In this document: positions 2 to 43,599 of the stretch, piece by piece
Position numbering within the stretch: position 1 is the first letter of the stretch
Layout: every line of letters begins with the position of its first letter
NCBI GenBank assembly: GCA_964349135.1
Contig: CAYGFK010000005.1
Location: forward strand, 1 to 57,895
DNA: 57,895 nucleotides
Direction of reading: 5' to 3'
Origin: an uncultured Candidatus Saccharibacteria bacterium
GTDB lineage: Bacteria; Patescibacteriota; Minisyncoccia; Phycocordibacterales; DSPV01
The notes under the pieces: generated by a model
The model's input: only the letters and a program-made list of their open reading frames with translations
What the model was told of the DNA's origin: nothing
Databases searched by the model: none
Translations under genes and position numbers: made by a program

Positions 2-763
2 GAAGTTGTATCTAATGGATATACAAGATTCCACGATAGGTTGATGTGGGCAAGAACTTATTTAAGCAAAGCTGGACTCGTATTAAATACGAGAAGAGGT
101 TTTATAAAAATTAGTGATAAGGGTCTTAAATTATTACAATCAAAATCTATAGAAAAAGAAGTCACCTTGGAAGACTTGGCAAAATATGAAGATTTCTTGG
201 ATTTTAAAAATAGTAAAAAAGAAGATGGTGGAAATTTAAAAAGTACAGAAATATCATCAGACACCCCACAGGACAAAATTGATCAAGGATTTAATGAAAT
301 TGAGAAATCACTCAAAGACGAACTTTTGAAGAAACTAAAGGAATCCAATCCGTATTATTTTGAGAAAATTATCTTGATACTTTTCAAAAAGATGGGCTAC
401 GGAGATTTTGAAGAAACTCCTAAGAGTGGAGATGGTGGTATTGATGGAATAATAAGCCAAGATAAACTCGGTCTAGATAGAATTTATACTCAAGCAAAAA
501 GATACACACAAAACAGTGTTGGTGAGAAAGAAATTAGAAATTTTATCGGCGCTATGAGTGGAGATGTGAATAAGGGAATCTTTGTGACAACATCAAGCTT
601 TGATCAATCTGCCATAAAAAAAGCCCATGATGATCACAATCATAAAATTATATTAATTGACGGTATAAGATTGGTAGATTTGATGATTAATTATGATATT
701 GGAGTACAGACAAAAACTACATATAAAATAAAGGAAATCGATGAGGAATTTTTTGTTGAATAA
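2..763 (+). CDS. mrr: Mrr-family type IV (modification-dependent) restriction endonuclease, 5'-truncated by the window edge
   Basis: The frame is open from position 2 (EVVSNGYTRFHDRLMWARTYLSKAGL, typical Mrr N-domain). The Mrr_cat motifs GDGGIDG, IYTQAKRY and KGIFVTTSSF...LIDG are present. Confidence 0.9.
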   Translation, partial: EVVSNGYTRFHDRLMWARTYLSKAGLVLNTRRGFIKISDKGLKLLQSKSIEKEVTLEDLAKYEDFLDFKNSKKEDGGNLKSTEISSDTPQDKIDQGFNEIEKSLKDELLKKLKESNPYYFEKIILILFKKMGYGDFEETPKSGDGGIDGIISQDKLGLDRIYTQAKRYTQNSVGEKEIRNFIGAMSGDVNKGIFVTTSSFDQSAIKKAHDDHNHKIILIDGIRLVDLMINYDIGVQTKTTYKIKEIDEEFFVE

Positions 764-769
764 ATCAAT

Positions 770-1855
770 ATGAGCAACCATAACCATGAGATTTTAATTA
801 CCAAACAAGATGTTGCTCCGTACATCTATTTTGTATGCTCAATGGCCCAGCGGGGCAGGATGTATGGAGGCCTTAGTGGAAAAAGTGATTATATTGGAGG
901 AGTGTTTGATCGTTGGATAAACATCATTCCTGAAAGTGTGATTTTTAATAAATATTTTCTCCCTAAAATAGCAGATAACCTTGAGGTTATTTCTGATTAT
1001 TATGAATATAATCCTAAAAAATCGGGTATTGCACCAGATGTTTTGGGTGTAAGAATTGGAACAAGGGCAATACCGTTTGTTGAGTATATGAATAAATGGC
1101 ACGCCCTAAATAATGCTCCGCAAATTGAAGTTAAATCATTCAAAAAAGCACAATATATGGTTAGCTTGAGAAATCAAGGTTATAACAATCAATATCTTGT
1201 GATGGTTGAAACAAATCTTGAAAGCGATTATTTACTGCCATTTTTTGAGAAAACTGTTGTTGGCGAAGATGTTTATAATAGATTAAAAATGGACGACAGT
1301 ATTTTTATAAAGGAGAATTTAGACAAAGATCTTTCATCAGTTACAAAGATTAAACGGGATAACACTGATTTAGGCTCTCTAAGACTCATTACAGTTTGTT
1401 TGGCAAGTGACTTTATGCAGTATTCTAATTTATGTAATGAAGGGGAAAGTCCTCTTTATATAACAAAAATAACTGAAACCCGGACGCCAAAAACACTACC
1501 ACGAACATTGCTTTTTTCAGATTTAGTAAAGAAAAATAGAAATAATCTGTATAGTTGGAAGAAAAATAAGCTAGATAAAAACAGAAAACACAAATTACTT
1601 GATGTTTATGTTGAAAATATAGATAAAATCAGATTCTTAAAGAATAGTAAAAGTTCAATTACGATTTATACAGAAAATAAGGCAAAAATAAATGACAAAG
1701 AATTAGAGGCCAATAAAACTTATATCATCAAGTTTCAACTATTAGATAGATCTGGATCAAAAAGCAGTGAATATTTTATGCACAAATCTATTATAGATAA
1801 AATCCCAAATAAGGAGGATATTATGCTTGATAATATAAAGCAATATATTAAATGA
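770..1855 (+). CDS. Putative type II restriction endonuclease (PD-(D/E)xK-like), 361 aa
   Basis: Contains APDVLG...QIEVKS (PD...ExK). AT-rich and convergent with a C5 methyltransferase. No specific family recognised. Confidence 0.55.
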   Translation: MSNHNHEILITKQDVAPYIYFVCSMAQRGRMYGGLSGKSDYIGGVFDRWINIIPESVIFNKYFLPKIADNLEVISDYYEYNPKKSGIAPDVLGVRIGTRAIPFVEYMNKWHALNNAPQIEVKSFKKAQYMVSLRNQGYNNQYLVMVETNLESDYLLPFFEKTVVGEDVYNRLKMDDSIFIKENLDKDLSSVTKIKRDNTDLGSLRLITVCLASDFMQYSNLCNEGESPLYITKITETRTPKTLPRTLLFSDLVKKNRNNLYSWKKNKLDKNRKHKLLDVYVENIDKIRFLKNSKSSITIYTENKAKINDKELEANKTYIIKFQLLDRSGSKSSEYFMHKSIIDKIPNKEDIMLDNIKQYIK

Positions 1856-1889: not shown

Positions 1890-3467
1890 CTATTCCATCG
1901 CCCTCATCATCTGCTTGGCCACAGCTTCGATAACTGGCACACTCACAGAATTTCCTGCTTGTTTATACAATGCGGAATCAGAAATCTTCGGTAGAATATA
2001 GTCCTTTGGGAAACCTTGAATTCTAAAACACTCTAAAGGAGTTAGTTTTCTTATTCCTTTTTTATCCTTGATAATTGGTACATTGTGCCCACCTGTTCCC
2101 ATATTTGCAGTTAATGTAGGGCAAACACCACTCTTATTTTCTCTGACATATTGTCTACGCCATTGATAAACTTTACCCTCCTCTTTTACTGAATTTTTTA
2201 GCTTTTCAAACAATGGCTTGCCATTGTAATAGTATTTTTCTGGCACATTTTTCTCTAACAAATCAGTTATTTTAGTATTTAGTTTTATTGGACTAGGAAA
2301 TTCAAATCTTTCTAAATAAAGTTTGTTTTTGAAACCCACGATGTAGATTCGTTCTCGGTTCTGGGGAATATTTCCGTATTCCATAGTATTCAAGACTTTA
2401 ATTTTTACATGATAGCCAAGGTCTTTTAATGCATCCTCAATAATCTTGAAAGTTTTACCACCGTCATGGCTTTTTAGGTTTTTTACATTCTCTAAGAGAA
2501 ATCCTTCTGGTTTTCTTGCCTCTAAGATACGAGCAATATCAAAAAAAAGGTTTCCTCTGCCTTTTTCATCATTAAATCCTTGTCTATACCCAGCAATAGA
2601 AAATGCCTGACAAGGAAAACCACCTAAAAGAAAATCAAAATTAGGCAAATCGTCGATACCAATTTTTCTTATATCCTCAACAACTAATTTTGAATCTTTA
2701 AAATTTAGATCGTAAGTATCTTTGCATTGTGGTTCAAAATCATTTGCAAAAACGGTCTTGAATCCTGCATTTTCAAAACCCATACGAATACCACCTACAC
2801 CAGCAAAAAGATCAATCGTTTTAAACCCGTGTTTCGTTTTCTTTTGCTCTACCTCCCTCGGTTCATTGTTCGGATTACTAATGACTTGAATAACAACGCC
2901 TCGGACTTCAACATCAGTTCTAAATAAGGGCTTCATGTTAGGATTTCTAGCTTCTAGCCTGTATCTATCTTTCTCGGTGTAGAGTTTTTTCAAAGTTGCT
3001 TCGTTGTCATCAATTATTGCGACAACAGTTTGCCCATTTTCTGCTGAGGTTTGGTGTTTTATGACAACAACATCACCATCAAAAATTCCATCCTTAACCA
3101 TAGAATCTCCCACGACACGAAGTGCGTAATAACCCTCTGCCGTTCTAATTTGTGGATTTATTACAGAAACGGAACCATCCCTTTCCTCAATCGCGGGAAG
3201 CGGATAACCGGCTTTGATACTTCCAAGTATTGGAATTTCAATTACCGATTTTATTTCTTTCTTTGGAGTTAAACTTCTAGCAGAATTTTCAGACTTAGAA
3301 AGATATCCCCTGACTTTTAGGGAATCAATGTGTTCGTGAATAGTGGAAACCGCCTTGAGTTTTAACTTCTTCCGTATTTCTTCTATGGTTGGAGATATGC
3401 CATTTTCGGCAAGATAAAGGCTTATGAAGTCGAATACCCGTTTCTGCTTTTTTGTGAGATTTGACAT
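1890..3467 (-). CDS. lexA: LexA repressor (HTH + S24 peptidase) fused to a DNA (cytosine-5) methyltransferase, 525 aa
   Basis: LexA HTH (LTKKQKRVFDFI...PTIEEI...STIHEHIDSL...ARSL), Ala-Gly cleavage site (IKAG), catalytic Ser (GDSM) and Lys (ATLKK). These are followed in frame by C5-MTase motifs DLFAGVGG, GGFPCQ, ENVKNL, QNRERIY, RKLTPLEC and QAGNSV. Start moved to ATG 3467. Confidence 0.92.
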   Translation of the reverse strand: MSNLTKKQKRVFDFISLYLAENGISPTIEEIRKKLKLKAVSTIHEHIDSLKVRGYLSKSENSARSLTPKKEIKSVIEIPILGSIKAGYPLPAIEERDGSVSVINPQIRTAEGYYALRVVGDSMVKDGIFDGDVVVIKHQTSAENGQTVVAIIDDNEATLKKLYTEKDRYRLEARNPNMKPLFRTDVEVRGVVIQVISNPNNEPREVEQKKTKHGFKTIDLFAGVGGIRMGFENAGFKTVFANDFEPQCKDTYDLNFKDSKLVVEDIRKIGIDDLPNFDFLLGGFPCQAFSIAGYRQGFNDEKGRGNLFFDIARILEARKPEGFLLENVKNLKSHDGGKTFKIIEDALKDLGYHVKIKVLNTMEYGNIPQNRERIYIVGFKNKLYLERFEFPSPIKLNTKITDLLEKNVPEKYYYNGKPLFEKLKNSVKEEGKVYQWRRQYVRENKSGVCPTLTANMGTGGHNVPIIKDKKGIRKLTPLECFRIQGFPKDYILPKISDSALYKQAGNSVSVPVIEAVAKQMMRAME

Positions 3468-3500
3468 ATTGCATTTAAAATCTGTTTTCGCTACAATTCT

Positions 3501-3523
3501 AGTATAACCGAATAAAAACCGAA
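3501..3523 (-). promoter_or_regulatory. Putative lexA-fusion promoter (-10 TATACT) with overlapping TTCGG-N6-TTCGG direct repeat (candidate LexA operator)
   Basis: On the + strand, AACCGAA occurs at 3506-3512 and 3517-3523 (11-bp period). AGTATA at 3501-3506 reads TATACT on the - strand. Confidence 0.55.
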
Positions 3524-3550
3524 ACTCCAAGCTAGGTTATCCACACAATT

Positions 3551-3943
3551 ATGGAAGCAAAACTAAAACACCTTGAATTCATACAAACAACCATAAACAG
3601 AATGGCAAATAATTCCTTCCTACTGAAGGGATGGGCAATAACAGTCGTTGGTGGTTTGTTCGCCTTTGGGTTTAAGGACTTAGATTGTAGCTACATATTT
3701 GTCTCACTTTCTATTCTATTTTTCTTTTGGATACTTGACGGATATTACCTGCATCAAGAAAAACTTTTTCGTGAGCTCTACGAGCGTACAGCAAAAAAGA
3801 AGGAGGATGAGATCGACCTCTCAATGAAAACTGACAAATGCGAAAATGGAGAGAGCTGGTTTGATTGTTCATGCTCGACAACCCTACTTGTATTCTATGG
3901 TGGATTATTGGTGGTTCATTTGATTATTATTTTAATTCTATAA
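3551..3943 (+). CDS. Small 3-TM membrane protein, putative effector paired with a TIR protein
   Basis: KHLEFIQ..INRMANNSFLLKGW motif, three hydrophobic segments and LDGYYL.QE.LFR.LY. Lies 9 bp upstream of the TIR gene. Confidence 0.75.
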   Translation: MEAKLKHLEFIQTTINRMANNSFLLKGWAITVVGGLFAFGFKDLDCSYIFVSLSILFFFWILDGYYLHQEKLFRELYERTAKKKEDEIDLSMKTDKCENGESWFDCSCSTTLLVFYGGLLVVHLIIILIL

Positions 3944-3952
3944 ATAAAATAT

Positions 3953-4621
3953 ATGGCAAGAAAAATTTTCATCAGCTACAAATATGGAGATTCAAGCGTT
4001 CAACCTATATCACGTCTCGAAGAAGATGGCACAACAACAGCGAGACATTATGTTGATGCTTTGCAAGCAAAGTTGGACGCGGAAGACCATATCAACAAAG
4101 GAGAAGATGATGGCGAGGACATGAGTGGATTTAAGGACGAAACAATAGAATCAAATTTGAGGGATAAAATCTTTGATAGCACTATCACAATTGTTTTACT
4201 TTCAAAAAATATGAAAGACCAGTATCTTGCCGAGGATGATCAGTGGATTCCGTGGGAGATTGCTTACTCTATGAAAGAAATGACTCGTGACGGTAGAACT
4301 AGTGGTACGAATGGAATGTTGGCTGTTGCCCTCCCAGACGAGACTGGAAGTTATTCGTACATAGTGAACCACTATCAATGTGTTACGAGTTGGAATATCG
4401 CCTCTCTGTTTAAGATTCTCGGTGGCAACATGTTCAATCGAAATGAGAAGAATCTTATTCGTTGCACAAGCTGTAATGGAACACACCATACGGGGCAAGA
4501 CCATTCATATATCCATCCAGTCAAATGGAGTGATTTCATCGCTAATATAAATGGACATCTCGATCATGTTACAAACCACCAAAATAATCTAGATCACTTT
4601 AAAATCGTAAAACAGGTTTAG
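3953..4621 (+). CDS. ThsB-like TIR domain protein (MTH538/DUF1863 type)
   Basis: RKIFISYKY, DSTITIVLLS, and WIPWEI with the candidate catalytic Glu, followed by NGMLAVALP. Confidence 0.85.
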   Translation: MARKIFISYKYGDSSVQPISRLEEDGTTTARHYVDALQAKLDAEDHINKGEDDGEDMSGFKDETIESNLRDKIFDSTITIVLLSKNMKDQYLAEDDQWIPWEIAYSMKEMTRDGRTSGTNGMLAVALPDETGSYSYIVNHYQCVTSWNIASLFKILGGNMFNRNEKNLIRCTSCNGTHHTGQDHSYIHPVKWSDFIANINGHLDHVTNHQNNLDHFKIVKQV

Positions 4622-4731
4622 GGAGTCCTGCCCGCGACCTTTCCGCCCTTCGTGGAAGGGCAAGCACTCAAGGCACTTCCGTTAAGGCGCTATATGCCAT
4701 ATCATTTATTTAAAACTGCTATACTTTTGGT

Positions 4732-5097
4732 ATGGCAAAACCACGGACCGTCAATGAGTACATAACACAAGCGCCAAAAGAGGCGCAAAAGAAATTGCGC
4801 GAAATGCGGACGTGTCTCAGAAGTGTCGCGCCAAAATCATCTGAGAGTCTGAAGTGGAGTATCCCAGCTTTCTTATACGAACGTATACTGTACACGTATG
4901 CCGGTTTCAAGCATCATATTGGTTTTTACCCGACACCTTCTGCTATACGAGCGTTTAAAAAAGAATTAGCCGACTACAGCACCGCAAAGGGCTCTATCCA
5001 GTTCCCGCTAGATAAACCTCTTCCGCTATCTCTCATCAAAAAAATCGCCAGGTTTCGTATCAAAGAATTCAAAGAGAAAGACGCGAAATGGATGTGA
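4732..5097 (+). CDS. DUF1801/YdhG-like protein
   Basis: TVNEYI...LREMR...ESLKWSIPAF...HIGFYP...KGSIQFPLDKPLP signature. Confidence 0.85.
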   Translation: MAKPRTVNEYITQAPKEAQKKLREMRTCLRSVAPKSSESLKWSIPAFLYERILYTYAGFKHHIGFYPTPSAIRAFKKELADYSTAKGSIQFPLDKPLPLSLIKKIARFRIKEFKEKDAKWM

Positions 5098-6622: not shown

Positions 6623-6695
6623 GCGCGGTTAGCTCAGTTGGTAGAGCATCTCATTGACGTTGAGAGGGCCGGGGGTTCGAGTCCCTCACCGCGCA
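6623..6695 (+). tRNA. tRNA-Val(GAC)
   Basis: GCGCGGT/ACCGCGC acceptor stem, anticodon arm TCTCA-TTGACGT-TGAGA, and TTCGA T-loop. CCA not encoded. Confidence 0.95.
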
Positions 6696-6746
6696 CAATA
6701 ATTCACGAGGACAGCTGGTAGCTGTCTGAGTGAAGTATCATTGCGA

Positions 6747-9260: not shown

Positions 9261-10445
9261 CTAGGGAAGGAGCTGGCGCAAGAGGTTTTTAAGGCCACCC
9301 CCGGCCTTTTTCGCGATTCCGACTCCGAGCGTTTGCTCCTCGCTGTCCTGAGAAAGTCCTATACGGCAGAGCCCGTATACGACCGACCATGAAGCGTCCT
9401 TTATGGGTTCACGCATGTTTCCACCCCAGTTCATTGATGCTGTTCGGGAGGGAAGAGAAAGTGATGCTTTCGCAAGTTCTTCGAGGACGGCAATACCCGA
9501 ACCACCGCCAGTGAGGATAATACCTGCCGGTAGGAGACGATTGCGACCAATCTTTTTTAGGTGGGCTTCGATGAGGTCGAGTATGTCAGATAATCGGGCT
9601 TCAATAATATCGTCTAGTTTCTTTCTTGGGAATGTTGAGCCGGTGATGGCGCCGACCTTGATGCGCTCCGCTTCCTCAATCGGCACCTTGAGCCCGAGCG
9701 CGATGTCGTTGGTTATGTCATTTGAGCCGATGGGGAAGGTCTCGAGAGATATCGGAATATTATTTTCAAAGACGACGATTGAGACTGTTTCGGCGCCGAT
9801 GTTGGCGAGCACGCTCCCCGCAATTTTCTGCTGTTTAGTAAGAGTCACTAAACTTGCGGCGAGTGGTGCGGCCACCGGCATCAATACTTCAACGCCGGCT
9901 TCTTCGACAGCCTGTTCAAGGTCGTAGAGATGGTTTTCAAGCGTCGTCACAAAAAGCACTTTGGCCTCGATTTTGTTCGCCTTCATTCCCGAAGGATTTG
10001 TACCGAGGACGACGTTCCCGTCAATGCGATATTGAATAGGGATAGTGTGAATGATGCGCCGATTTACTGATGTTGCCTGCGGAATGTTGCTTCGCGCGGC
10101 TGCCATCGCATTTTCCATGTCGCGTTCAGTCACTTCAGAGTCGGCGCGAGATATGGCAGTGGTTCCGGTTGCCGTAGTCGAAGAAAGGCCTATGCCTCCG
10201 ACGGAGAGGTAGGCCTGTCTGATGCGGACCCCAGACGCTTTTTCTGCCTGTGCCAAGGCCCCCTTGAGCGCCCTTTGCACGTCGGCTTGATTGATGATGT
10301 AGCCATGGCGGAGCCCTTTTGATTCAGCAAAACCTGACCCGATGATTTTTATCAAGGTTCGTTCAGGCGTTCGGTCTTCTTCAGCTACCATGACCTTTGC
10401 CTGATAGGTTCCAATATCTATCCCAACGGATATTTTTCGTGCCAT
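9261..10445 (-). CDS. ftsA: Cell division protein FtsA
   Basis: VGIDIGT, NIGAETV, IILTGGGS actin-like motifs. Directly upstream of ftsZ. Confidence 0.95.
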   Translation of the reverse strand: MARKISVGIDIGTYQAKVMVAEEDRTPERTLIKIIGSGFAESKGLRHGYIINQADVQRALKGALAQAEKASGVRIRQAYLSVGGIGLSSTTATGTTAISRADSEVTERDMENAMAAARSNIPQATSVNRRIIHTIPIQYRIDGNVVLGTNPSGMKANKIEAKVLFVTTLENHLYDLEQAVEEAGVEVLMPVAAPLAASLVTLTKQQKIAGSVLANIGAETVSIVVFENNIPISLETFPIGSNDITNDIALGLKVPIEEAERIKVGAITGSTFPRKKLDDIIEARLSDILDLIEAHLKKIGRNRLLPAGIILTGGGSGIAVLEELAKASLSLPSRTASMNWGGNMREPIKDASWSVVYGLCRIGLSQDSEEQTLGVGIAKKAGGGLKNLLRQLLP

Positions 10446-10465
10446 GCGAAATGTAAGAGAGAAAT

Positions 10466-10849
10466 TTATACGTGCAAAAATTTTGCACCGATGCGTTTCT
10501 CCTTACCCTCCATTGTACTACCGTGTGTGTGCCCCTTCAAATGGAGTAATCCGTGGATAAACAACATGCCGATGAATTTTGTGTAGGGCAGACCGTATGA
10601 CCGGTGTTGTGCCCTGGCGACGGCGGGGGCGATGATGATGGAACCCATTCCCTTTTTAAGGGTAAATGATAAGACGTTTGTCGGCTTATCTTTCTTTCGG
10701 TGCGTTCGGTTTAGTTGTCGAGACTCTTTCGGAGTGACGAATACGAGCTCAAGCAAAAAGCGCTTTCCGAGGATAGCGCTTTTTATAGCCTTGAAGGGTA
10801 CGCGAGGCGTGCGGGCTTTTGTGGCGTTGATGAGGATAAGGTCTCGCAC
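10466..10849 (-). CDS. ybeY: rRNA maturation RNase YbeY
   Basis: LNRTHRKKDKPTNVLSF and IHGLLHLKGHTH. Confidence 0.93.
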   Translation of the reverse strand: MRDLILINATKARTPRVPFKAIKSAILGKRFLLELVFVTPKESRQLNRTHRKKDKPTNVLSFTLKKGMGSIIIAPAVARAQHRSYGLPYTKFIGMLFIHGLLHLKGHTHGSTMEGKEKRIGAKFLHV

Positions 10850-10863
10850 AGGGGCTCGAGAGA

Positions 10864-11106
10864 TTATTTGCGTACCATCTTATCAGGCATTTTTCCTGAT
10901 TTGATGAGTTGCTCAACTTCTTTTCGTCGCGCAATACGAGTGAGGGTCCGCTTTTTCCTTGTCAGGTGAGACTTATTTCGTTCTTTGTATCGGAGTGAGC
11001 GCACTCGTTTAACGATGCCAGAACCCTGTAGCATCTTGTTGAAGCGTCGTAGTGTTGAAAGCGAGTTTTCGGTCCCCGTCCTCTCTACATTGATATTTAC
11101 TGCCAT
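10864..11106 (-). CDS. rpsU: 30S ribosomal protein bS21-like
   Basis: Basic 80-aa protein with E...S.LRRF.K...SG...VR..RY pattern. Confidence 0.75.
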   Translation of the reverse strand: MAVNINVERTGTENSLSTLRRFNKMLQGSGIVKRVRSLRYKERNKSHLTRKKRTLTRIARRKEVEQLIKSGKMPDKMVRK

Positions 11107-11147
11107 AGGCCAGGCATTGTAACACGGGACACCGTCCTTATGCAAGG

Positions 11148-12395
11148 TTAGGCCTTCAACGCTTTCAGGTGGGCGGGGAGGTCTTGAAGGGATATCGTTT
11201 CCTGTGACCGTGTGGACATATCTCTGACGATAGCGTTTCCTTCAAGTGCTTCTTTCTGTCCGATGATGACCACATAGGGCACCTTCATATTTTCCGCCGT
11301 AGCAATTTGGCTTGAGAGCTTGTCTTTGGCGAGCGATTGGTGCACCGGGATTTTGGCGTGCCGAAGCGCTTCGATAACGTCCAACGATTTCCGTTTGGCG
11401 TCGAATCCGATTTGAATGAAATAGACCTGAGGCTTTTTCATCTTGTGCGACGCTTTCTTGTCTCCGCGTGTTTCTTTGAAAATGAGAGTGACGCCGGCCG
11501 CAGAGAGGTCGCGTTTCGACTCCATTTTCTTGGCGAAGCTTGTCATTCGATAGCCGAGGCCGAGCGTCACTTCAGGTTCGTCTTCTTTTCCGATTGCGTT
11601 GAGTGTTTTGATGAGGAAGATGGTGTGCGAGCAAACGCGACGATTCCCAAGCAGGTGATTGTCTATTTTGTAAGGAACATTCATTGACTCAATGTACTCA
11701 AGCACTTCGGTAAAATGCGCTCGGCTGGTTTCAGTAAGGGAGGAAACCGATTTCGGCGCCTGGTTGGCGAGTTCGACACATTTTTCGTGGGTACACTCAA
11801 GGGGAGCAAAAAGGTCTTTCTTGAGTGCCGTTCGACAATGGGTTTGTAGCATGTCAGCATGTTTTCGATAAAACTGATTCACTTCGCGTGTGAAGTGGGT
11901 AAGGGTATCTTTGTCACCGACAGAATTGATATCTATATAAAGGTCTTTGTAACCCTTTTCGCGAAGTATTTCGAGAGATGCCTTGATGAGTTCCGCTTCC
12001 GCGATACTCTTGGAGGTGCCGAGGATGTCGAGGTGTATCTGTTTATAAGCATTTTTGGGAGTTTTTCGTTGTCCTACCCGAGGAATAGGCCCTTCATAAT
12101 AGAGCATGGTGGCTTGGGCAGGATTGAGGAGTTTGCGTTCCTCGCATGTTCGAATGAGCGCTACTTTTTCTTCAGCGCAGATTCTCATTTCTGGGCAGTC
12201 GGCTTCCCCATAATTTTTCTCATGAGTCTCGGACTCCGTAATTTGTTTTGCAATCTTTACGTCTTGATTCGTGACCACCGGCGCTTCGATAGGCATGAAA
12301 TTATAGTAATAGGCGATTTCTGCCGCGCGGTTGAGTTTTTTGAGTAGGAGATAAGGCGACCTTGCGTTTTTGTTTTTGCGAGCCGTTGTTTTCAT
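11148..12395 (-). CDS. Divergent histidyl-tRNA synthetase paralogue with degenerate catalytic motifs and an intact anticodon-binding domain
   Basis: HisRS architecture (F.PIEAP, YYEGP, INSVGD) and C-terminal QIATAENMKVPYVVIIGQKE...VRDM. The RQFxQ, RGLDYY, GGRYD and GLER motifs are not conserved. Confidence 0.75.
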   Translation of the reverse strand: MKTTARKNKNARSPYLLLKKLNRAAEIAYYYNFMPIEAPVVTNQDVKIAKQITESETHEKNYGEADCPEMRICAEEKVALIRTCEERKLLNPAQATMLYYEGPIPRVGQRKTPKNAYKQIHLDILGTSKSIAEAELIKASLEILREKGYKDLYIDINSVGDKDTLTHFTREVNQFYRKHADMLQTHCRTALKKDLFAPLECTHEKCVELANQAPKSVSSLTETSRAHFTEVLEYIESMNVPYKIDNHLLGNRRVCSHTIFLIKTLNAIGKEDEPEVTLGLGYRMTSFAKKMESKRDLSAAGVTLIFKETRGDKKASHKMKKPQVYFIQIGFDAKRKSLDVIEALRHAKIPVHQSLAKDKLSSQIATAENMKVPYVVIIGQKEALEGNAIVRDMSTRSQETISLQDLPAHLKALKA

Positions 12396-12396
12396 A

Positions 12397-13005
12397 TTAC
12401 TCAGTGAGGGTGGCATTGATGGGAACTAATTCCATACCGGGTCTCCAGTCGATGCGCGAGATGGGAAAAAGTCTCACGATAGGTTTCCCGACGATGTCAG
12501 TTCGCGGGAGAGGTCCCCATCGTCGCGAGTCGGAACTTGCTGAGCGATTATCTCCGAGCACGTAATATTCGTCAGGACCGAGCGTGACCGTTAAGAAGTC
12601 ACTACTTTGATTTTTGACGAATGGTTCATCGAGCATGAATGGTTCCGAGCCGTCTGTGGGTGTGATTCTGATGCGTGCGCCTTCGAATTGTACGGTCTCG
12701 CCCGGAAGCCCCACGATACGTTTAATAAAATATTTCTGTGGCTCAAGGGGGTAGTGCAGGATGATAGTGTCGTGACGCTTGGGTTCGCTGAAACGGTACG
12801 AGAGCTCATCAACGATAAGGTATTCTCCATTGTGGAATGTCGGAATCATTGAGTCGCCAGAAACGATGAATGGTTGAGCAATAAAGGTTCTGATGATGAA
12901 TACGAAGGCAACCGCAACTACGACGAATCGGACGGTTTCAAGGAGTTCGGACTTTTTTTTCGTAGCTATCGGCGCGGCGACCGGTTCTGGATTCTGTTCA
13001 GTCAT
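12397..13005 (-). CDS. lepB: Signal peptidase I
   Basis: PFIVSGDSMIPT, YFIKRIVGLPGE, GDNRSASSDSR and an N-terminal TM. Confidence 0.95.
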   Translation of the reverse strand: MTEQNPEPVAAPIATKKKSELLETVRFVVVAVAFVFIIRTFIAQPFIVSGDSMIPTFHNGEYLIVDELSYRFSEPKRHDTIILHYPLEPQKYFIKRIVGLPGETVQFEGARIRITPTDGSEPFMLDEPFVKNQSSDFLTVTLGPDEYYVLGDNRSASSDSRRWGPLPRTDIVGKPIVRLFPISRIDWRPGMELVPINATLTE

Positions 13006-13105
13006 ATTTCACCCATTGTAATATACGTCTCGTTTGACTAAAAGTTTCTTTACGTGGCTTTGTGTTATGTTGCACGATGGAGTCCGTGATACTATTATTC
13101 TCGCT

Positions 13106-13696
13106 ATGAGTTACGTCATCGTTGGGTTGGGAAATCCCGGAGAGGAATACGAACACACCCGGCATAATACCGGACGCATCCTTGTCGAGGATTTTGCTCG
13201 CAGAATGAAATGTGATGCGTTTGAGCACGACAAGAAAGCGAACGCAGATACGGTCACGGGGAAGGTGAAGCGAGAAGCATTCACACTCGTGCTTCCCGAT
13301 ACGTTCATGAATAAATCGGGGAATGCGGTGGCACGGTACGTGAAATCGAAGAAGGCGGCTGAACAGCTTGTCGTTATTCATGACGACCTTGATTTGCCAC
13401 TTGGCCGAATCAAACTATCGTTCAATCGTGGCTCTGGCGGGCATCGCGGTGTCGAGTCGATTGTGCGTGCACTAAAGACAGAAGCGTTCGTGCGTCTACG
13501 CGTAGGTATCTCAAAAGATGCCGGAAAAGGGAGAGTAAAGAAACCTGTTGGCGAAGATGCGGTAGGGGATTTTATTCTCGGCGCATTCAAACCGGCTGAG
13601 GAGAAGGAATTTAAGAAAGTATCGAAACTCGTCTCCGAGGTGCTTGAGTTTATTGTCGAGGAAGGCCATCAGGCGGCCATGCAGGAGTTTAATTGA
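13106..13696 (+). CDS. pth: Peptidyl-tRNA hydrolase
   Basis: IVGLGNPG.EY..TRHN.G, FMNKSG, HDDLD and GGHRG. Confidence 0.96.
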   Translation: MSYVIVGLGNPGEEYEHTRHNTGRILVEDFARRMKCDAFEHDKKANADTVTGKVKREAFTLVLPDTFMNKSGNAVARYVKSKKAAEQLVVIHDDLDLPLGRIKLSFNRGSGGHRGVESIVRALKTEAFVRLRVGISKDAGKGRVKKPVGEDAVGDFILGAFKPAEEKEFKKVSKLVSEVLEFIVEEGHQAAMQEFN

Positions 13697-13725
13697 GTTT
13701 TCTTGTCTATATAAATAGCGCGTGT

Positions 13726-13761
13726 AAAAAAACCGTTCGCTGTGTGGCGAACGGTTTTTTT
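13726..13761. terminator. Bidirectional intrinsic terminator between pth and the S1 gene
   Basis: AAAAAAACCGTTCGC-tgtgtg-GCGAACGGTTTTTTT. Confidence 0.85.
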
Positions 13762-13848
13762 GTTTATTGCCTAGCGAGTGAGTGGAGAGAAAAAGGACTT
13801 TCTTTTTCTCTCCCGAACGAGCGACGGCAACAAAGGGTTTAATACCCT

Positions 13849-14979
13849 TTATTCTTTTGTGACGTACGAGAGCGTCATACGTTGTTCTTTTGGTTCAAAG
13901 ACCATAATCTTGAAATCGTAGGTCTTGCCGAGTTCGAGGGCCAAGCGGAGTTTGTCTTCACTGCCAAACTCACTGATATGCACGAGCCCCGCGACCCCTT
14001 CTTCGATTGAGGCCAGTGCGCCATGTTTGTTGTACTTGATGACCACGCCTTTCACCGTCTGGTCTTTAGCGTATTTTTCTCCGGCTGCAACCCACGGGTT
14101 TGGTTTCAAGGCCTTGATTGAGAGTGAGATTTTCCCATCTTTGATTTCGATGACGCGGACGCGTACCGAGTCGCCCATCTTGTAGCGATTGCGCGGGTCG
14201 TCGACGAGTGCCCAATCCATTTCAGAAATGTGCACCAATCCTTCGAGCCCCTCTTCAATCTTCACAAAGATACCGAAGTCAACGGCTCCCGTGACCACTC
14301 CTTCGAGCTCGTCACCGACGGCGTATTTCTCGACAATCTTTTCTTTTTCCTTCTCGTTCTGATTCTTCTCAGAGAAAATGAGCTTTCCTTCTTGTGGTGA
14401 TGCGGTGATGATGGAAACGGAAATCGGGTGACCGACAAGTTTCTTCAACTCTTCAAGAATTCGGTCTTTGTTACCGTCGGAAATGCGCGGATAGTGTTCA
14501 GGTTTGAGCTGGGATGCCGGAAGAAATCCCGGTATACCTTGCCATTCGAGAATGAGTCCTCCTTTATTCGCTTCTTTGACCGGAAGTTCAAGAATTTTCT
14601 TTTCTTTGATGGCAATTTCAGCTTCGCCCCAGATAAGTGCACGTCGAGCTTCTTTGAGCGAGAGTTCGATGTATCCTTCCGAATTATCCGTACTGACGAT
14701 TTTAGCCGCAATGACGTCCCCAACGTTGATTTTCTTGATGAGGTCTCTCGCGTTGATGTACTCGCGACCATAAATGATACCGGTGCCGAATGGAGGCAAG
14801 TCAACGTAAACCGCCCCTCGAGCGATTCCTAATATCTTTCCTTCTACGACTTCTCCGGTTTCTCTCGGAGAAGCGGACTTCGAGAGCATGCGCCCCATAA
14901 GGGTCTCATTTTCTCGGTCGGCGTCTGTCATGGCCTCTTTAGGCGTCTCCTGCACAGCCGTAAGATTCTGTTCTTCCAT
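13849..14979 (-). CDS. rpsA: 30S ribosomal protein S1-like (four S1 domains)
   Basis: Repeated S1 motifs (GFLPASQL, DFGIFV...EGLVHISE, AGLVHISE). Confidence 0.88.
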   Translation of the reverse strand: MEEQNLTAVQETPKEAMTDADRENETLMGRMLSKSASPRETGEVVEGKILGIARGAVYVDLPPFGTGIIYGREYINARDLIKKINVGDVIAAKIVSTDNSEGYIELSLKEARRALIWGEAEIAIKEKKILELPVKEANKGGLILEWQGIPGFLPASQLKPEHYPRISDGNKDRILEELKKLVGHPISVSIITASPQEGKLIFSEKNQNEKEKEKIVEKYAVGDELEGVVTGAVDFGIFVKIEEGLEGLVHISEMDWALVDDPRNRYKMGDSVRVRVIEIKDGKISLSIKALKPNPWVAAGEKYAKDQTVKGVVIKYNKHGALASIEEGVAGLVHISEFGSEDKLRLALELGKTYDFKIMVFEPKEQRMTLSYVTKE

Positions 14980-15196
14980 AATTATGTGAAGCAGATGTCC
15001 GGCGTCCTTTCGTGGTCTATCACGACGACGGGGTTATCCCTGCTCCTTATTTATTAGTAAACGTCTTTGGTATGCCTCTTTGCCTAAGCGAACTCAAGCG
15101 AAGAAGAGACGTGGGGAGTAGTATACCTTTTTTTCGTATGGTGTAAATAGTCCCTCGACTTGCTCGAGCCCCGTATTAGCTATACTCTTATAGTCT

Positions 15197-15838
15197 ATGA
15201 TTATTACGTATCACGGGGCAGAATCATTCAAAGTCCAGTATGGGGATGTGGTTTTGGCATTTAACCCGCTCTCTAAGAACTCTCAATTAAAAAATACTCG
15301 ATTTGGTGCCGATATCGCGCTTATTACGGCAAACCATATCGACCTTAACGGAGTCGATTCAGTCACGTTTGGCGGGAAAGAACCTTTTGTTATCTCTGGA
15401 CCAGGCGAATATGAATATAAGGGTGTGTTAGTGCACGGATTTTCGTCGACGACGTCGTATGGCGGTGAGGCAATGGGTAACACAATATACATGGTTACTC
15501 TCGAAGGCATCAATCTTTGTTTCTTGGGTGCGCTCGATAAAAAAGAACTTCCCAAGGAGGCGACTGAAGAGCTAGAGGGTATTGATATTCTTTTTGTCCC
15601 TGTCGGAGGTGACGGTGTGCTCTCTCCGGTAGATGCGTACGGGCTTGCCGTGTCGCTCGAGCCAAAAATTATTATACCGATGCATTATGGAGATGTCGGT
15701 GCCAAGAATGCGCTCAGCTTATTTCTCAAGGAAGGCGGGGTTGAAAAGAGTGCCGAAGAGATGGAGAAGTTGACGCTTAAGAAAAAAGATTTTGACGGTC
15801 GCGAAGGCGACATTATTGTACTGAAGCCATTAAATTGA
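15197..15838 (+). CDS. MBL-fold metallo-hydrolase (Lactamase_B_3-like)
   Basis: ITANHIDLN, GPGEYE, IDILFVPVGG and IIIPMHY. Confidence 0.85.
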   Translation: MIITYHGAESFKVQYGDVVLAFNPLSKNSQLKNTRFGADIALITANHIDLNGVDSVTFGGKEPFVISGPGEYEYKGVLVHGFSSTTSYGGEAMGNTIYMVTLEGINLCFLGALDKKELPKEATEELEGIDILFVPVGGDGVLSPVDAYGLAVSLEPKIIIPMHYGDVGAKNALSLFLKEGGVEKSAEEMEKLTLKKKDFDGREGDIIVLKPLN

Positions 15839-15851
15839 TTCGCCAAAACTC

Positions 15852-16151
15852 ATGCGACTTTTCGATTTTTTGGAGCGATTGCGCGAGGAGCCCGAATCAC
15901 ACCGACGGCGTACGGCATTTGTGGTAGCCCTTTCCGTTACGGGGCTTGTCGCTCTCGGGTGGTTCATGTCGTGGTCGGGAGGGTCCCGTGTGTCCTACAC
16001 GAGCACTGAGGCGACGTCGTCACCTCTTACGGTGCTCGCACAAACCCTGACGGAGGGTAGGGAAATGTTCCATGATTTATTCGGAGCTCTGGGAGAATCT
16101 CGGGATGTTTTCATTGCCCCAGACGCACCTCCCGAAGAATCAGAGAACTGA
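15852..16151 (+). CDS. Hypothetical single-TM protein
   Basis: 99-aa ORF with one hydrophobic segment. Fills the gap between the MBL gene and gyrA. Confidence 0.65.
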   Translation: MRLFDFLERLREEPESHRRRTAFVVALSVTGLVALGWFMSWSGGSRVSYTSTEATSSPLTVLAQTLTEGREMFHDLFGALGESRDVFIAPDAPPEESEN

Positions 16152-41395: not shown

Positions 41396-42302
41396 GCCAC
41401 TGTCGAACGAGTTTTTTTGCGTCCGTAGGGTCGTCAATCCAACGGATTGATTTGTCTCGATTAAACCAGGTTAGTTGTCGTTTGGCATATCGATAGATTT
41501 CACGTTCAAGACGTTCTTCAAATTCCTTTCTCGAAAGAGTTCCTTGGAGGTAGTACGAAAGACAGCGATACTCAAGCCCGAGTACCTCCATTCGTTTCCA
41601 TGAGAGTCCGTGCTCATGGAGACGGCGCGCCTCGCTTAGCATTCCTCGCTTGAGGCGCGATTTGAGTCGCGCGTGAATTCGTTTCCTGAGTGTTTCCATT
41701 GAAAATTGTATGCCGATTTTTATCGGGTTATAGCACGAGGTTTTGGAGAGCCTCGGGACTTTTCCGAATACGTTTGTAATCTCTAGTGCTCGGATGAGTC
41801 GTCGTTTGTTGAAAGCGTCTATGGTCGACGCTCGTTCAAGGTCCTCTTTCTGGAGTCTCTCTAAGAGTTCTCGAGCTGTTTTACGCTCGAGCGTAGCGCG
41901 TAATTTTTTATTTGGGGGCACTTCAGGAAGGACAATGCCGTTTATAAGCGCATCAATATAAAAACCGGTTCCTCCGCATATAATAGGAAGTTTCCCACGG
42001 CGCTCAATCTCTTTAATCGCGCGTTTCGCCAGTGCTATAAAACGAGTTACTGAAAATTGTCTGCGTGGGTCAGCAACATCAAGGAGATGATGTCGGACAC
42101 CTTTCATCTCGTGTTTCGAGACCTTTCCTGTGCCGATGGTGAGCCCGCGATAGACTTGACGCGAATCGGCTGAAATTACCTCTCCGTTGAATGCGCGAGC
42201 AAGCTCAACAGCCAAGTCGCTTTTGCCTGATGCGGTTGGGCCAAGAACCACGACAACCTGAGGCCGTGATTCTTGGCTTCGCGCTACTCTCACTACGCTC
42301 AT
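41367..42302 (-). CDS. miaA: tRNA dimethylallyltransferase
   Basis: LGPTASGKS, ISADSRQVY, GGTGFY and YAKRQLTWF. Confidence 0.96.
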   Translation of the reverse strand: MSVVRVARSQESRPQVVVVLGPTASGKSDLAVELARAFNGEVISADSRQVYRGLTIGTGKVSKHEMKGVRHHLLDVADPRRQFSVTRFIALAKRAIKEIERRGKLPIICGGTGFYIDALINGIVLPEVPPNKKLRATLERKTARELLERLQKEDLERASTIDAFNKRRLIRALEITNVFGKVPRLSKTSCYNPIKIGIQFSMETLRKRIHARLKSRLKRGMLSEARRLHEHGLSWKRMEVLGLEYRCLSYYLQGTLSRKEFEERLEREIYRYAKRQLTWFNRDKSIRWIDDPTDAKKLVRQWLSTSPPPVA

Positions 42303-42435
42303 ATGCCGGGAGAGATATCGGCTACCACGTAGCCAGGTGTTTTTCGACCTCGCCGACTCGGTAACGAAAAACCTTTCGATTCTCTCACGCCGTGAAGCAG
42401 TTCACGGCTTCCCGTCAATTTCGCTTTGCTCATAA
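42303..42435 (-). repeat. Structured cassette (type B) with inverted and direct copies of the tRNA-Leu(CAA) 3' end
   Basis: 13-bp repeat at 42303-42315 and 42435-42447. Inverted TTCGATTCTCTC at 42375-42386. Cassette spans about 42318-42376. Confidence 0.8.
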
Positions 42436-42517
42436 TGCCGGGAGAGAGAATCGAACTCTCATGGATTGCTCCACACGATTTTGAGTCGTGCGCGTCTACC
42501 AATTCCGCCATCCCGGC
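42436..42517 (-). tRNA. tRNA-Leu(CAA)
   Basis: CACGA-CTCAAAA-TCGTG anticodon arm and a long variable arm. Confidence 0.94.
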
Positions 42518-42600
42518 CCTGTTCACAACTAAATTATCACCAAAACGGGTTTTGCTCAAACATCCTATGATGATAAGATATCGTTATAACTATTGAGACC

Positions 42601-43599
42601 ATGTCGCATTTCTACGGTGATGCCATATTTTGGCTTGAAGTAGGTAAGATAAAACCAAATCCATATCAGCCACGTCAGGAGTTTGACGAGGCGCGTCTTC
42701 GTGATTTAGCCGAATCTATACGCACGTATGGCGTACTTCAACCTCTCGTGGTGACTCGCAAAGAAGTGCAACGTCCGGACGGGAGTTTATTTGTGGAATA
42801 TGAGCTTGTTTCCGGAGAACGGCGCTTGCGCGCATCGAAACTTGCCGGTATTGCGCAGGTCCCGGCTATCATTCGCAATGATACCGATGATTCAAAGATT
42901 AAACTTGAGCTTGCTATCATCGAAAACCTTCAGCGAGAAGACCTTAATCCTGTGGACCGTGCGAAAGCATTTCAACGCCTTGCTGACGAGTTTTCTTACA
43001 AACATACGGAGATTGCACAGAAGATAGGGAAGAGCCGAGAGTATGTTTCAAATACCCTCCGTATCCTCGCACTACCTGAAGAAATTCTAATTGCTCTTGC
43101 GGCAAAACGTATTTCTGAAGGACACACCCGCCCCATTTTGATGTTGTCGGACCGGCCTGAAGAACAAATGACTCTCTTTAAGGAGGTGATTATGAGACGG
43201 ATGACCGTGCGCGAGGCCGAAGGTATTGCACGTCGCATTGCTTTCGATAAAGTTCGTAAGAAGGACCGAGCCGTGGACCCTGAGATTGTTGAGATGGAGG
43301 AGAAGCTCTCAGAGACCCTTGGAACCCGCGTGCAGATTGAGCGTAAGGAAAAGGGAGGCAAAATACACATTGATTTCTTTTCGCCCGAAGACCTTGCGCA
43401 GATAATTACGATGATAGAAGAGCGTCGTCATGTGCTTGCGCAGAGTCAGGGAGTAATTCCTCCGGAGCGTTCCGCGGAAGAAATCGCGGGTGAGGTTGCT
43501 CAAACTATTGCACAGGAACAGGAGGCGCCGATTGACGATTCGACCGAGCAAGACAATGAAGGGGACAATCTTTACTCCATTCGGGATTTCTCAGTTTAA
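42601..43599 (+). CDS. parB: ParB/Spo0J family partition protein
   Basis: PNPYQPR..F, GVLQPLVV, SGERRLRA, IENLQREDL and an HTH. No parA adjacent. Confidence 0.92.
   Translation: MSHFYGDAIFWLEVGKIKPNPYQPRQEFDEARLRDLAESIRTYGVLQPLVVTRKEVQRPDGSLFVEYELVSGERRLRASKLAGIAQVPAIIRNDTDDSKIKLELAIIENLQREDLNPVDRAKAFQRLADEFSYKHTEIAQKIGKSREYVSNTLRILALPEEILIALAAKRISEGHTRPILMLSDRPEEQMTLFKEVIMRRMTVREAEGIARRIAFDKVRKKDRAVDPEIVEMEEKLSETLGTRVQIERKEKGGKIHIDFFSPEDLAQIITMIEERRHVLAQSQGVIPPERSAEEIAGEVAQTIAQEQEAPIDDSTEQDNEGDNLYSIRDFSV

Follow-up and report, generated by a model that had tools for sequence, protein, structure and literature searches.

A probable type V Thoeris system beside a LexA-family gene in the small genome of a Candidatus Saccharibacteria bacterium

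Type V Thoeris is an anti-phage defense system that consists of two proteins, ThsB and ThsF, and it was described in a preprint of December 2025 (Yirmiya et al., bioRxiv, 10.64898/2025.12.03.692087). [quoted passage not shown] Two of these systems, from Bacillus sp. 1NLA3E and from Bacillus thuringiensis DAR 81934, provided phage defense in B. subtilis, and both TIR proteins made 3'cADPR upon infection (10.64898/2025.12.03.692087). The defense was canceled by the sponge Tad1. When 3'cADPR was added, toxicity was seen with the B. thuringiensis system but not with the 1NLA3E system, and several of the new Thoeris types use other isomers of the signal (10.64898/2025.12.03.692087).

Here we analyzed a stretch of 57,895 nucleotides (the window), which is contig CAYGFK010000005.1, positions 1 to 57,895, of the assembly GCA_964349135.1 of an uncultured Candidatus Saccharibacteria bacterium. 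An earlier note on this DNA had proposed that a membrane protein gene and a TIR gene close to its start (Table 1) make up a Thoeris-like system of minimal size, with the small membrane protein acting as the signal-gated effector. This proposal fits well with what we found, as the architecture is that of type V Thoeris and a validated ThsF, the 132-aa protein P0160 of Bacillus sp. 1NLA3E, shares 45% identity with the membrane protein over 128 aa (E 3e-38). The gene just upstream of P0160 (L099:2412-2999) contains the exact sequence listed in Table S1 of the preprint under IMG 2506742000, which is the TIR of the defending 1NLA3E type V system (10.64898/2025.12.03.692087). We reached the 1NLA3E locus by a protein search and an exact-sequence look-up; a scan for it by TIR sequence gave only relatives at 71% identity. 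In the loci that we examined, TIRs sharing 49 to 71% identity with those of the two validated type V systems adjoin ThsF homologues. The effector class named "3TM" in the preprint was also considered and was rejected, because its TIRs show only a generic similarity of about 28 to 30% to the TIRs beside ThsF homologues, compared to the 49 to 71% for the type V TIRs. The pair in the window is thus very probably a type V Thoeris anti-phage system with the gene order thsF-thsB. It is an ordinary member of a system that has already been described and tested and is not new; the novelty that had been attributed to the pair is lost, since type V Thoeris was already characterized, and PADLOC also has a candidate system, PDC-M50, to which the membrane protein belongs.

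Table 1. Positions of the features at the start of the window
Feature	Position	Strand	Description
Mrr-type type IV (modification-dependent) restriction endonuclease	2-763	+	Cut by contig end; Pfam Mrr_cat E 8e-35 and Mrr_N; PADLOC mREase_IV E 1e-57
361-aa ORF	770-1855	+	Lies after the Mrr gene and before the LexA-methyltransferase fusion
LexA (HTH and S24 peptidase) fused to C5 DNA methyltransferase	1890-3467	-	Pfam LexA_DNA_bind, Peptidase_S24 and DNA_methylase in one ORF; divergent from thsF
Divergent control region, 83 bp	3468-3550	.	Separates the LexA-methyltransferase fusion from thsF
Direct repeat CCGAA-N6-CCGAA, 11-bp period	3508-3523	.	Candidate operator of the LexA-family domain
TTATCCACA box (DnaA-box consensus)	3537-3545	+	Putative; 5 nt before the thsF ATG
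thsF	3551-3943	+	130 aa, three TM helices; PADLOC PDC-M50A family
thsB	3953-4621	+	222-aa TIR-domain protein, predicted sensor and signal synthase; catalytic Glu102, codon 4256-4258

The two genes lie on the same strand with a gap of only 9 nt. As the earlier note had read it, the upstream gene encodes a membrane protein without SIR2, Macro, or SLOG domains, and both the open reading frames and Pfam agree with this, as no match to any of these three domains was found in Pfam. A hydropathy scan of ThsF gave three hydrophobic segments (approximately residues 22-41, 45-64, and 108-130), and the AlphaFold2 model of the monomer (pLDDT 89.6) has helices at residues 2-39, 46-82, 103-107, and 110-129. 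If the N terminus is cytoplasmic, the N-terminal helix and the loop of residues 65-107 share one face of the membrane. ThsF of the window matches all four PADLOC models for PDC-M50A, the best being PDLC04686 with an E value of 5e-46, and it carries all of the invariant residues of the family (H7, R17, N21, F23, W28, F59, W60, L62, D63, and E70). The invariant residues cluster outside the membrane core, and the conserved residues K4, K6, H7, R17, and K26 are all located on the N-terminal helix. No PDB entry matched the fold of the ThsF model at an E value better than 1.3, and NCBIfam has no match for either protein of the pair. We found at least 1173 homologues of ThsF, and there are at least 507 loci in a collection with one genome per species. 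The family is sharply conserved, and its loci occur in Patescibacteria, Acidobacteriota, Pseudomonadota, Bacillota, Bacteroidota, and archaea.

The TIR protein passes the cut-off of Pfam PF08937 (ThsB_TIR) with 29.5 bits against 21.2, matches the PADLOC ThsB1 model PDLC00428 with an E value of 1e-75, and, along its entire length, matches the PDB entry 9VYL, "Putative cyclic ADP-D-ribose synthase TIR1," with an E value of 4e-63. A literature search on 9VYL matched no paper on that structure. The WExxY-type glutamate that had been noticed in the sequence is E102, which lies in the stretch WIPWEIAY (W101-E102-I103-A104-Y105) and aligns with the WIPWE of 9VYL. The window TIR is 51% identical, over its full length, to a TIR listed in Table S1 as "DUF2270 - Type V" (10.64898/2025.12.03.692087). 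It is also 49% identical to a ThsB that is encoded beside a SIR2 ThsA on the Bacillus cereus plasmid NZ_CP053657.2. The locus on this plasmid (L093, positions 10329-16054) is a type I Thoeris system in which a SIR2 ThsA is accompanied by three or more TIR genes from different subfamilies; one of these resembles the window ThsB (49%), and another resembles the B. thuringiensis type V TIR (53%). The subfamily of the window TIR differs from those of both validated type V TIRs, and with the TIR of 1NLA3E it has only the catalytic motif in common. The genome of 711 kb holds a single ThsB, which is that of the window, and it gave no SIR2_2 match at an E value of 1 or better, in line with the earlier remark that there is no canonical ThsA.

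The label DUF2270 deserves comment. ThsF of the window has no match to Pfam PF10028 (DUF2270) at an E value of 0.1 or better. Among 57 members of the ThsF family, 15 do match PF10028, but all of them are below the cut-off. One protein of the family reaches 24.8 bits compared to a cut-off of 25. When 12 genomes that carry a ThsF gene were searched with PF10028, the ThsF genes appeared only at an E value of about 0.7, and one true DUF2270 was present elsewhere. An hhalign comparison of the 57 ThsF proteins with four true DUF2270 proteins gave a probability of 1.8%, which is not significant. Because of these subthreshold matches and the nonsignificant profile comparison, we dropped the description of ThsF as a member of Pfam DUF2270. 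The validated ThsF of 1NLA3E likewise fails PF10028, which indicates that the label does not separate members of the family from nonmembers. The ThsF family therefore stands at the fringe of DUF2270, and the criterion that can be used is homology to a validated ThsF and not the Pfam label. With the copy of Pfam that we used, we could not reproduce the assignment of ThsF to DUF2270.

A related problem concerns automated annotation. A check with PADLOC, which had been proposed earlier, gave a divided result, as PDC-M50A was matched (E 5e-46) whereas PDC-M50B was unmatched at an E value of 0.1 or better. The candidate system PDC-M50 of PADLOC-DB v2 consists of PDC-M50A and PDC-M50B. The membrane protein of the window thus resembles this system, but the TIR differs from it in matching the ThsB1 models instead of PDC-M50B. 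With a TIR of this kind, an automated run of PADLOC v2 might call neither system. The models split the pair between two systems, and automated annotation can report a lone ThsB without an effector. A full-text literature search for "PDC-M50" found nothing.

The association of ThsF with TIR genes is not limited to this genome. We collected the 80 best related loci and added the window's own, which gives 81 loci; the 80 were picked by similarity to the query and are not independent events. An adjacent TIR gene on the same strand, counting both sides, is present in 67 of the 81 loci; four more have TIRs of the CAP12 type, and three more loci are cut by a contig end. That homologues of the two genes occur together had been named earlier as a test of the proposal, and this is what the loci show. 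A close downstream open reading frame on the same strand is present in 70 loci, and 66 of these 70 neighbors have a Pfam TIR domain (56 ThsB_TIR, 6 TIR_2, and 4 CAP12-type TIR). The ThsB-like TIR model PDC-M50B is matched by 47 of the 70. In nine loci (L036, L048, L049, L051, L063, L065, L066, L067, and L078) there is a TIR gene on each side of thsF, which suggests that one effector may serve two different sensors. On plasmids, the host distributions of the membrane protein family and of the B. thuringiensis-type TIR are nearly identical (42 and 43 records for Klebsiella and 36 and 36 for Escherichia, respectively), and the two are adjacent in plasmid records of Terribacillus and Klebsiella. 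The Klebsiella pneumoniae plasmid pCuAs (NZ_CP006663.1, positions 41763-43068; L104) carries a ThsF-like gene of 141 aa followed by a TIR gene of 287 aa. This pair is annotated merely as "hypothetical protein" and "TIR domain-containing protein," and the same pair is found on dozens of Klebsiella and Escherichia plasmids.

These data also bear on a different division of labor, in which the TIR itself would be the killer through depletion of NAD+ and the membrane protein would be a sensor, an anchor, or an unrelated neighbor. TIRs that act as NADase effectors are known in CBASS, Pycsar, and short pAgo systems, and 4 of the 70 downstream neighbors have a TIR of the CAP12/Pycsar type. However, the TIR of the window is of the ThsB signaling type, and the membrane protein family is tightly and specifically linked to TIR genes. 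The toxicity and sponge data for type V systems moreover place the membrane protein downstream of the signal (10.64898/2025.12.03.692087). We consider it highly improbable that the TIR acts as the killer here.

If ThsB is the sensor and ThsF the effector, there are two ways in which they could communicate. The earlier note had left room for activation of the membrane protein by direct contact with ThsB, with no diffusible messenger, and the very small size of the effector, which has no recognized ligand-binding domain, would fit with that. Against it, ThsF proteins that are 82 to 92% identical to that of the window are paired with TIRs that are just 18 to 25% identical to the window TIR. Such pairing of nearly identical ThsF proteins with unrelated TIR subfamilies favors a diffusible signal over direct contact. 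In addition, 3'cADPR alone is toxic with one type V system and a signal sponge abolishes defense (10.64898/2025.12.03.692087). Activation by direct contact is therefore disfavored, and we regard it as improbable.

With a diffusible signal, the following course of events can be proposed. ThsB would sense phage infection, and its TIR domain, with Glu102 as the catalytic residue, would convert NAD+ into a cyclic ADP-ribose signal. This signal would bind to the cytoplasmic face of ThsF, formed by the N-terminal helix and the loop of residues 65-107, where nearly all of the invariant residues are located. ThsF is expected to form a homo-oligomeric ring in the membrane, and its activation would breach the membrane, so that the infected cell would stop growing or die ahead of phage release. 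What our analysis shows directly is the identity of the two proteins and the conservation of their linkage; we infer the steps from sensing through a cADPR-type signal to membrane damage by ThsF from the experiments that were done with homologues.

The most likely candidate for the product of the window ThsB is 3'cADPR, and we favor it with moderate confidence, as both tested type V TIRs make this molecule (10.64898/2025.12.03.692087). The subtype to which the window TIR belongs is also found beside a SIR2 ThsA on the B. cereus plasmid, which points in the same direction. The solved relative 9VYL, with its name TIR1, would be an additional argument if it is the type I ThsB of Bacillus dafuensis, the product of which activates the ThsA of B. 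cereus. Alternatively, the same architecture may work with another signal, such as 2'cADPR, canonical cADPR, N7-cADPR, His-ADPR, or a new molecule, with ThsF tuned to match. Many TIR subfamilies are paired with ThsF, and this would be in line with a variety of signals. Furthermore, several new Thoeris types use other isomers and the type V system of 1NLA3E did not respond to 3'cADPR (10.64898/2025.12.03.692087). The absence of toxicity of 3'cADPR with the 1NLA3E system suggests that certain ThsF proteins may depend on a different signal or on an additional input. Set against the observations that favor 3'cADPR, a different signal appears possible but rather unlikely, and 3'cADPR is the one that we retain for the window system.

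A further aspect of the locus is found upstream of thsF. A LexA-family gene, with both LexA_DNA_bind and Peptidase_S24, is located directly upstream of thsF in 19 of the 81 loci. All 19 are among the loci with the ThsF proteins closest to that of the window (the window itself and loci within L002-L028, together with L042 and L076). The LexA-family gene can be divergent from thsF or codirectional with it. Its fusion partner is a C5 methyltransferase in the window and in L003, L005, L008, and L010, and an N6/N4 methyltransferase in L006, L013, and L076. In ten loci the LexA-family gene is free-standing; L042 has only a fragment, cut by the contig end. The adjacency of LexA and thsF stays while the methyltransferase varies or is absent. 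In homologous regions of nine other loci, the layout of the 83-bp control region is the same as in the window.

Two elements in this region are of interest. The CCGAA repeat is kept in the window, L003, L005, L008, L010, and L013, where in L013 it is an inverted repeat pair, and ACCTAA repeats take its place in L002 and L004, where the LexA-like protein is a different one. The direct repeats between the divergent genes change with the LexA variant, and the CCGAA repeat is a candidate operator of the LexA-family domain. The second element is the box that precedes thsF. On the thsF strand, eight loci have TTATCC[A/C]CA at 2 to 9 nt ahead of the start codon, and 11 of the 81 loci have it within 120 nt; of random 120-nt windows, only 3.5% contain the box. 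The box is kept in eight loci whose intergenic regions otherwise differ. The TTATCCACA box occupies the place expected for a ribosome-binding site. Promoter-like matches in the 83-bp region are no more common than by chance, and a promoter and terminator scan of positions 3300-4800 gave nothing above the chance level around the operon.

Tentatively, type V Thoeris in the clade of the window may have a third component, a self-cleaving repressor of the LexA family, and together with the box this repressor might couple the operon to DNA damage or replication stress. We regard this possibility as less likely than not. The preprint mentions no regulator (10.64898/2025.12.03.692087), and our literature search found no paper that links Thoeris with LexA. 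That thsF is preceded by a LexA-family gene and by a conserved box may be new as an observation.

The pair lies within a low-GC defense island in a genome of 28 contigs. The defense-island setting had already been recognized, and it holds up, as the Mrr gene, the 361-aa open reading frame, and the LexA-S24-C5 methyltransferase fusion lie alongside the pair. The GC content of the island is 29 to 42%, compared to about 50% further on. The start of the window is the contig end, and the left edge of the island is outside the window. Some 2 kb beyond the island, on its right side, a tRNA-Val(GAC) gene is present at positions 6623-6696 on the forward strand. The 361-aa open reading frame has no match in Pfam, PADLOC, or NCBIfam; it is possibly the restriction partner of the methyltransferase, as judged from its position only. 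Among relatives the ThsF family is patchy, being present in 3 of 61 genomes and, within the same genus, in 2 of 6 genomes. A distribution in 3 of 61 genomes is as expected of a mobile defense gene. We infer that this low-GC island, which thsF and thsB share with restriction-modification genes, was horizontally acquired.

What does this locus add? As a defense system it adds little, being a further instance of type V Thoeris in a host with a genome of 711 kb. It does confirm the wide occurrence and the mobility of the type V family. The LexA-family gene that recurs upstream of thsF provides, with the box, a testable handle on the regulation of Thoeris operons, which is not addressed in the literature that we searched. 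If the link with LexA is true, it would tie the expression of Thoeris to DNA damage or replication stress.

Small membrane effectors that are gated by nucleotides are known from CBASS and type III CRISPR systems, with Cap15/S-2TMbeta and Csx23 as examples. The window system would resemble them in having a short membrane protein gated by a cyclic nucleotide-like second messenger, but there is no sequence or fold relationship that we could find, the best fold match in the PDB having an E value above 1. Type II Thoeris, which has an effector with TM and Macro domains and uses a His-ADPR signal, is similar in combining a TIR sensor with a membrane-spanning effector, a presumed pore former. Divergent Macro domains can escape Pfam. 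ThsF of the window, however, not only lacks a Macro match in Pfam but also has no room for such a domain; it is much smaller, and the TIR belongs to another subfamily and likely makes another signal. With type I Thoeris (a SIR2-SLOG ThsA and ThsB), the window system shares the ThsB subtype, close to the "TIR1" of 9VYL, and probably also the signal. It differs in that a SIR2-SLOG ThsA is absent from the genome and in that the effector would act on the membrane and not on NAD+. Even in comparison with the described type V systems there are differences: the effector gene comes first in the window, whereas the TIR gene comes first in the Bacillus systems, the host has a tiny genome, and the clade of the window has the upstream LexA-family gene and the conserved box, both of which are absent from the text of the preprint. 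Nevertheless, type V Thoeris is the system that the locus matches in its basic plan, a two-gene operon in which a ThsB TIR protein is encoded together with a three-helix TM effector of about 130 aa.
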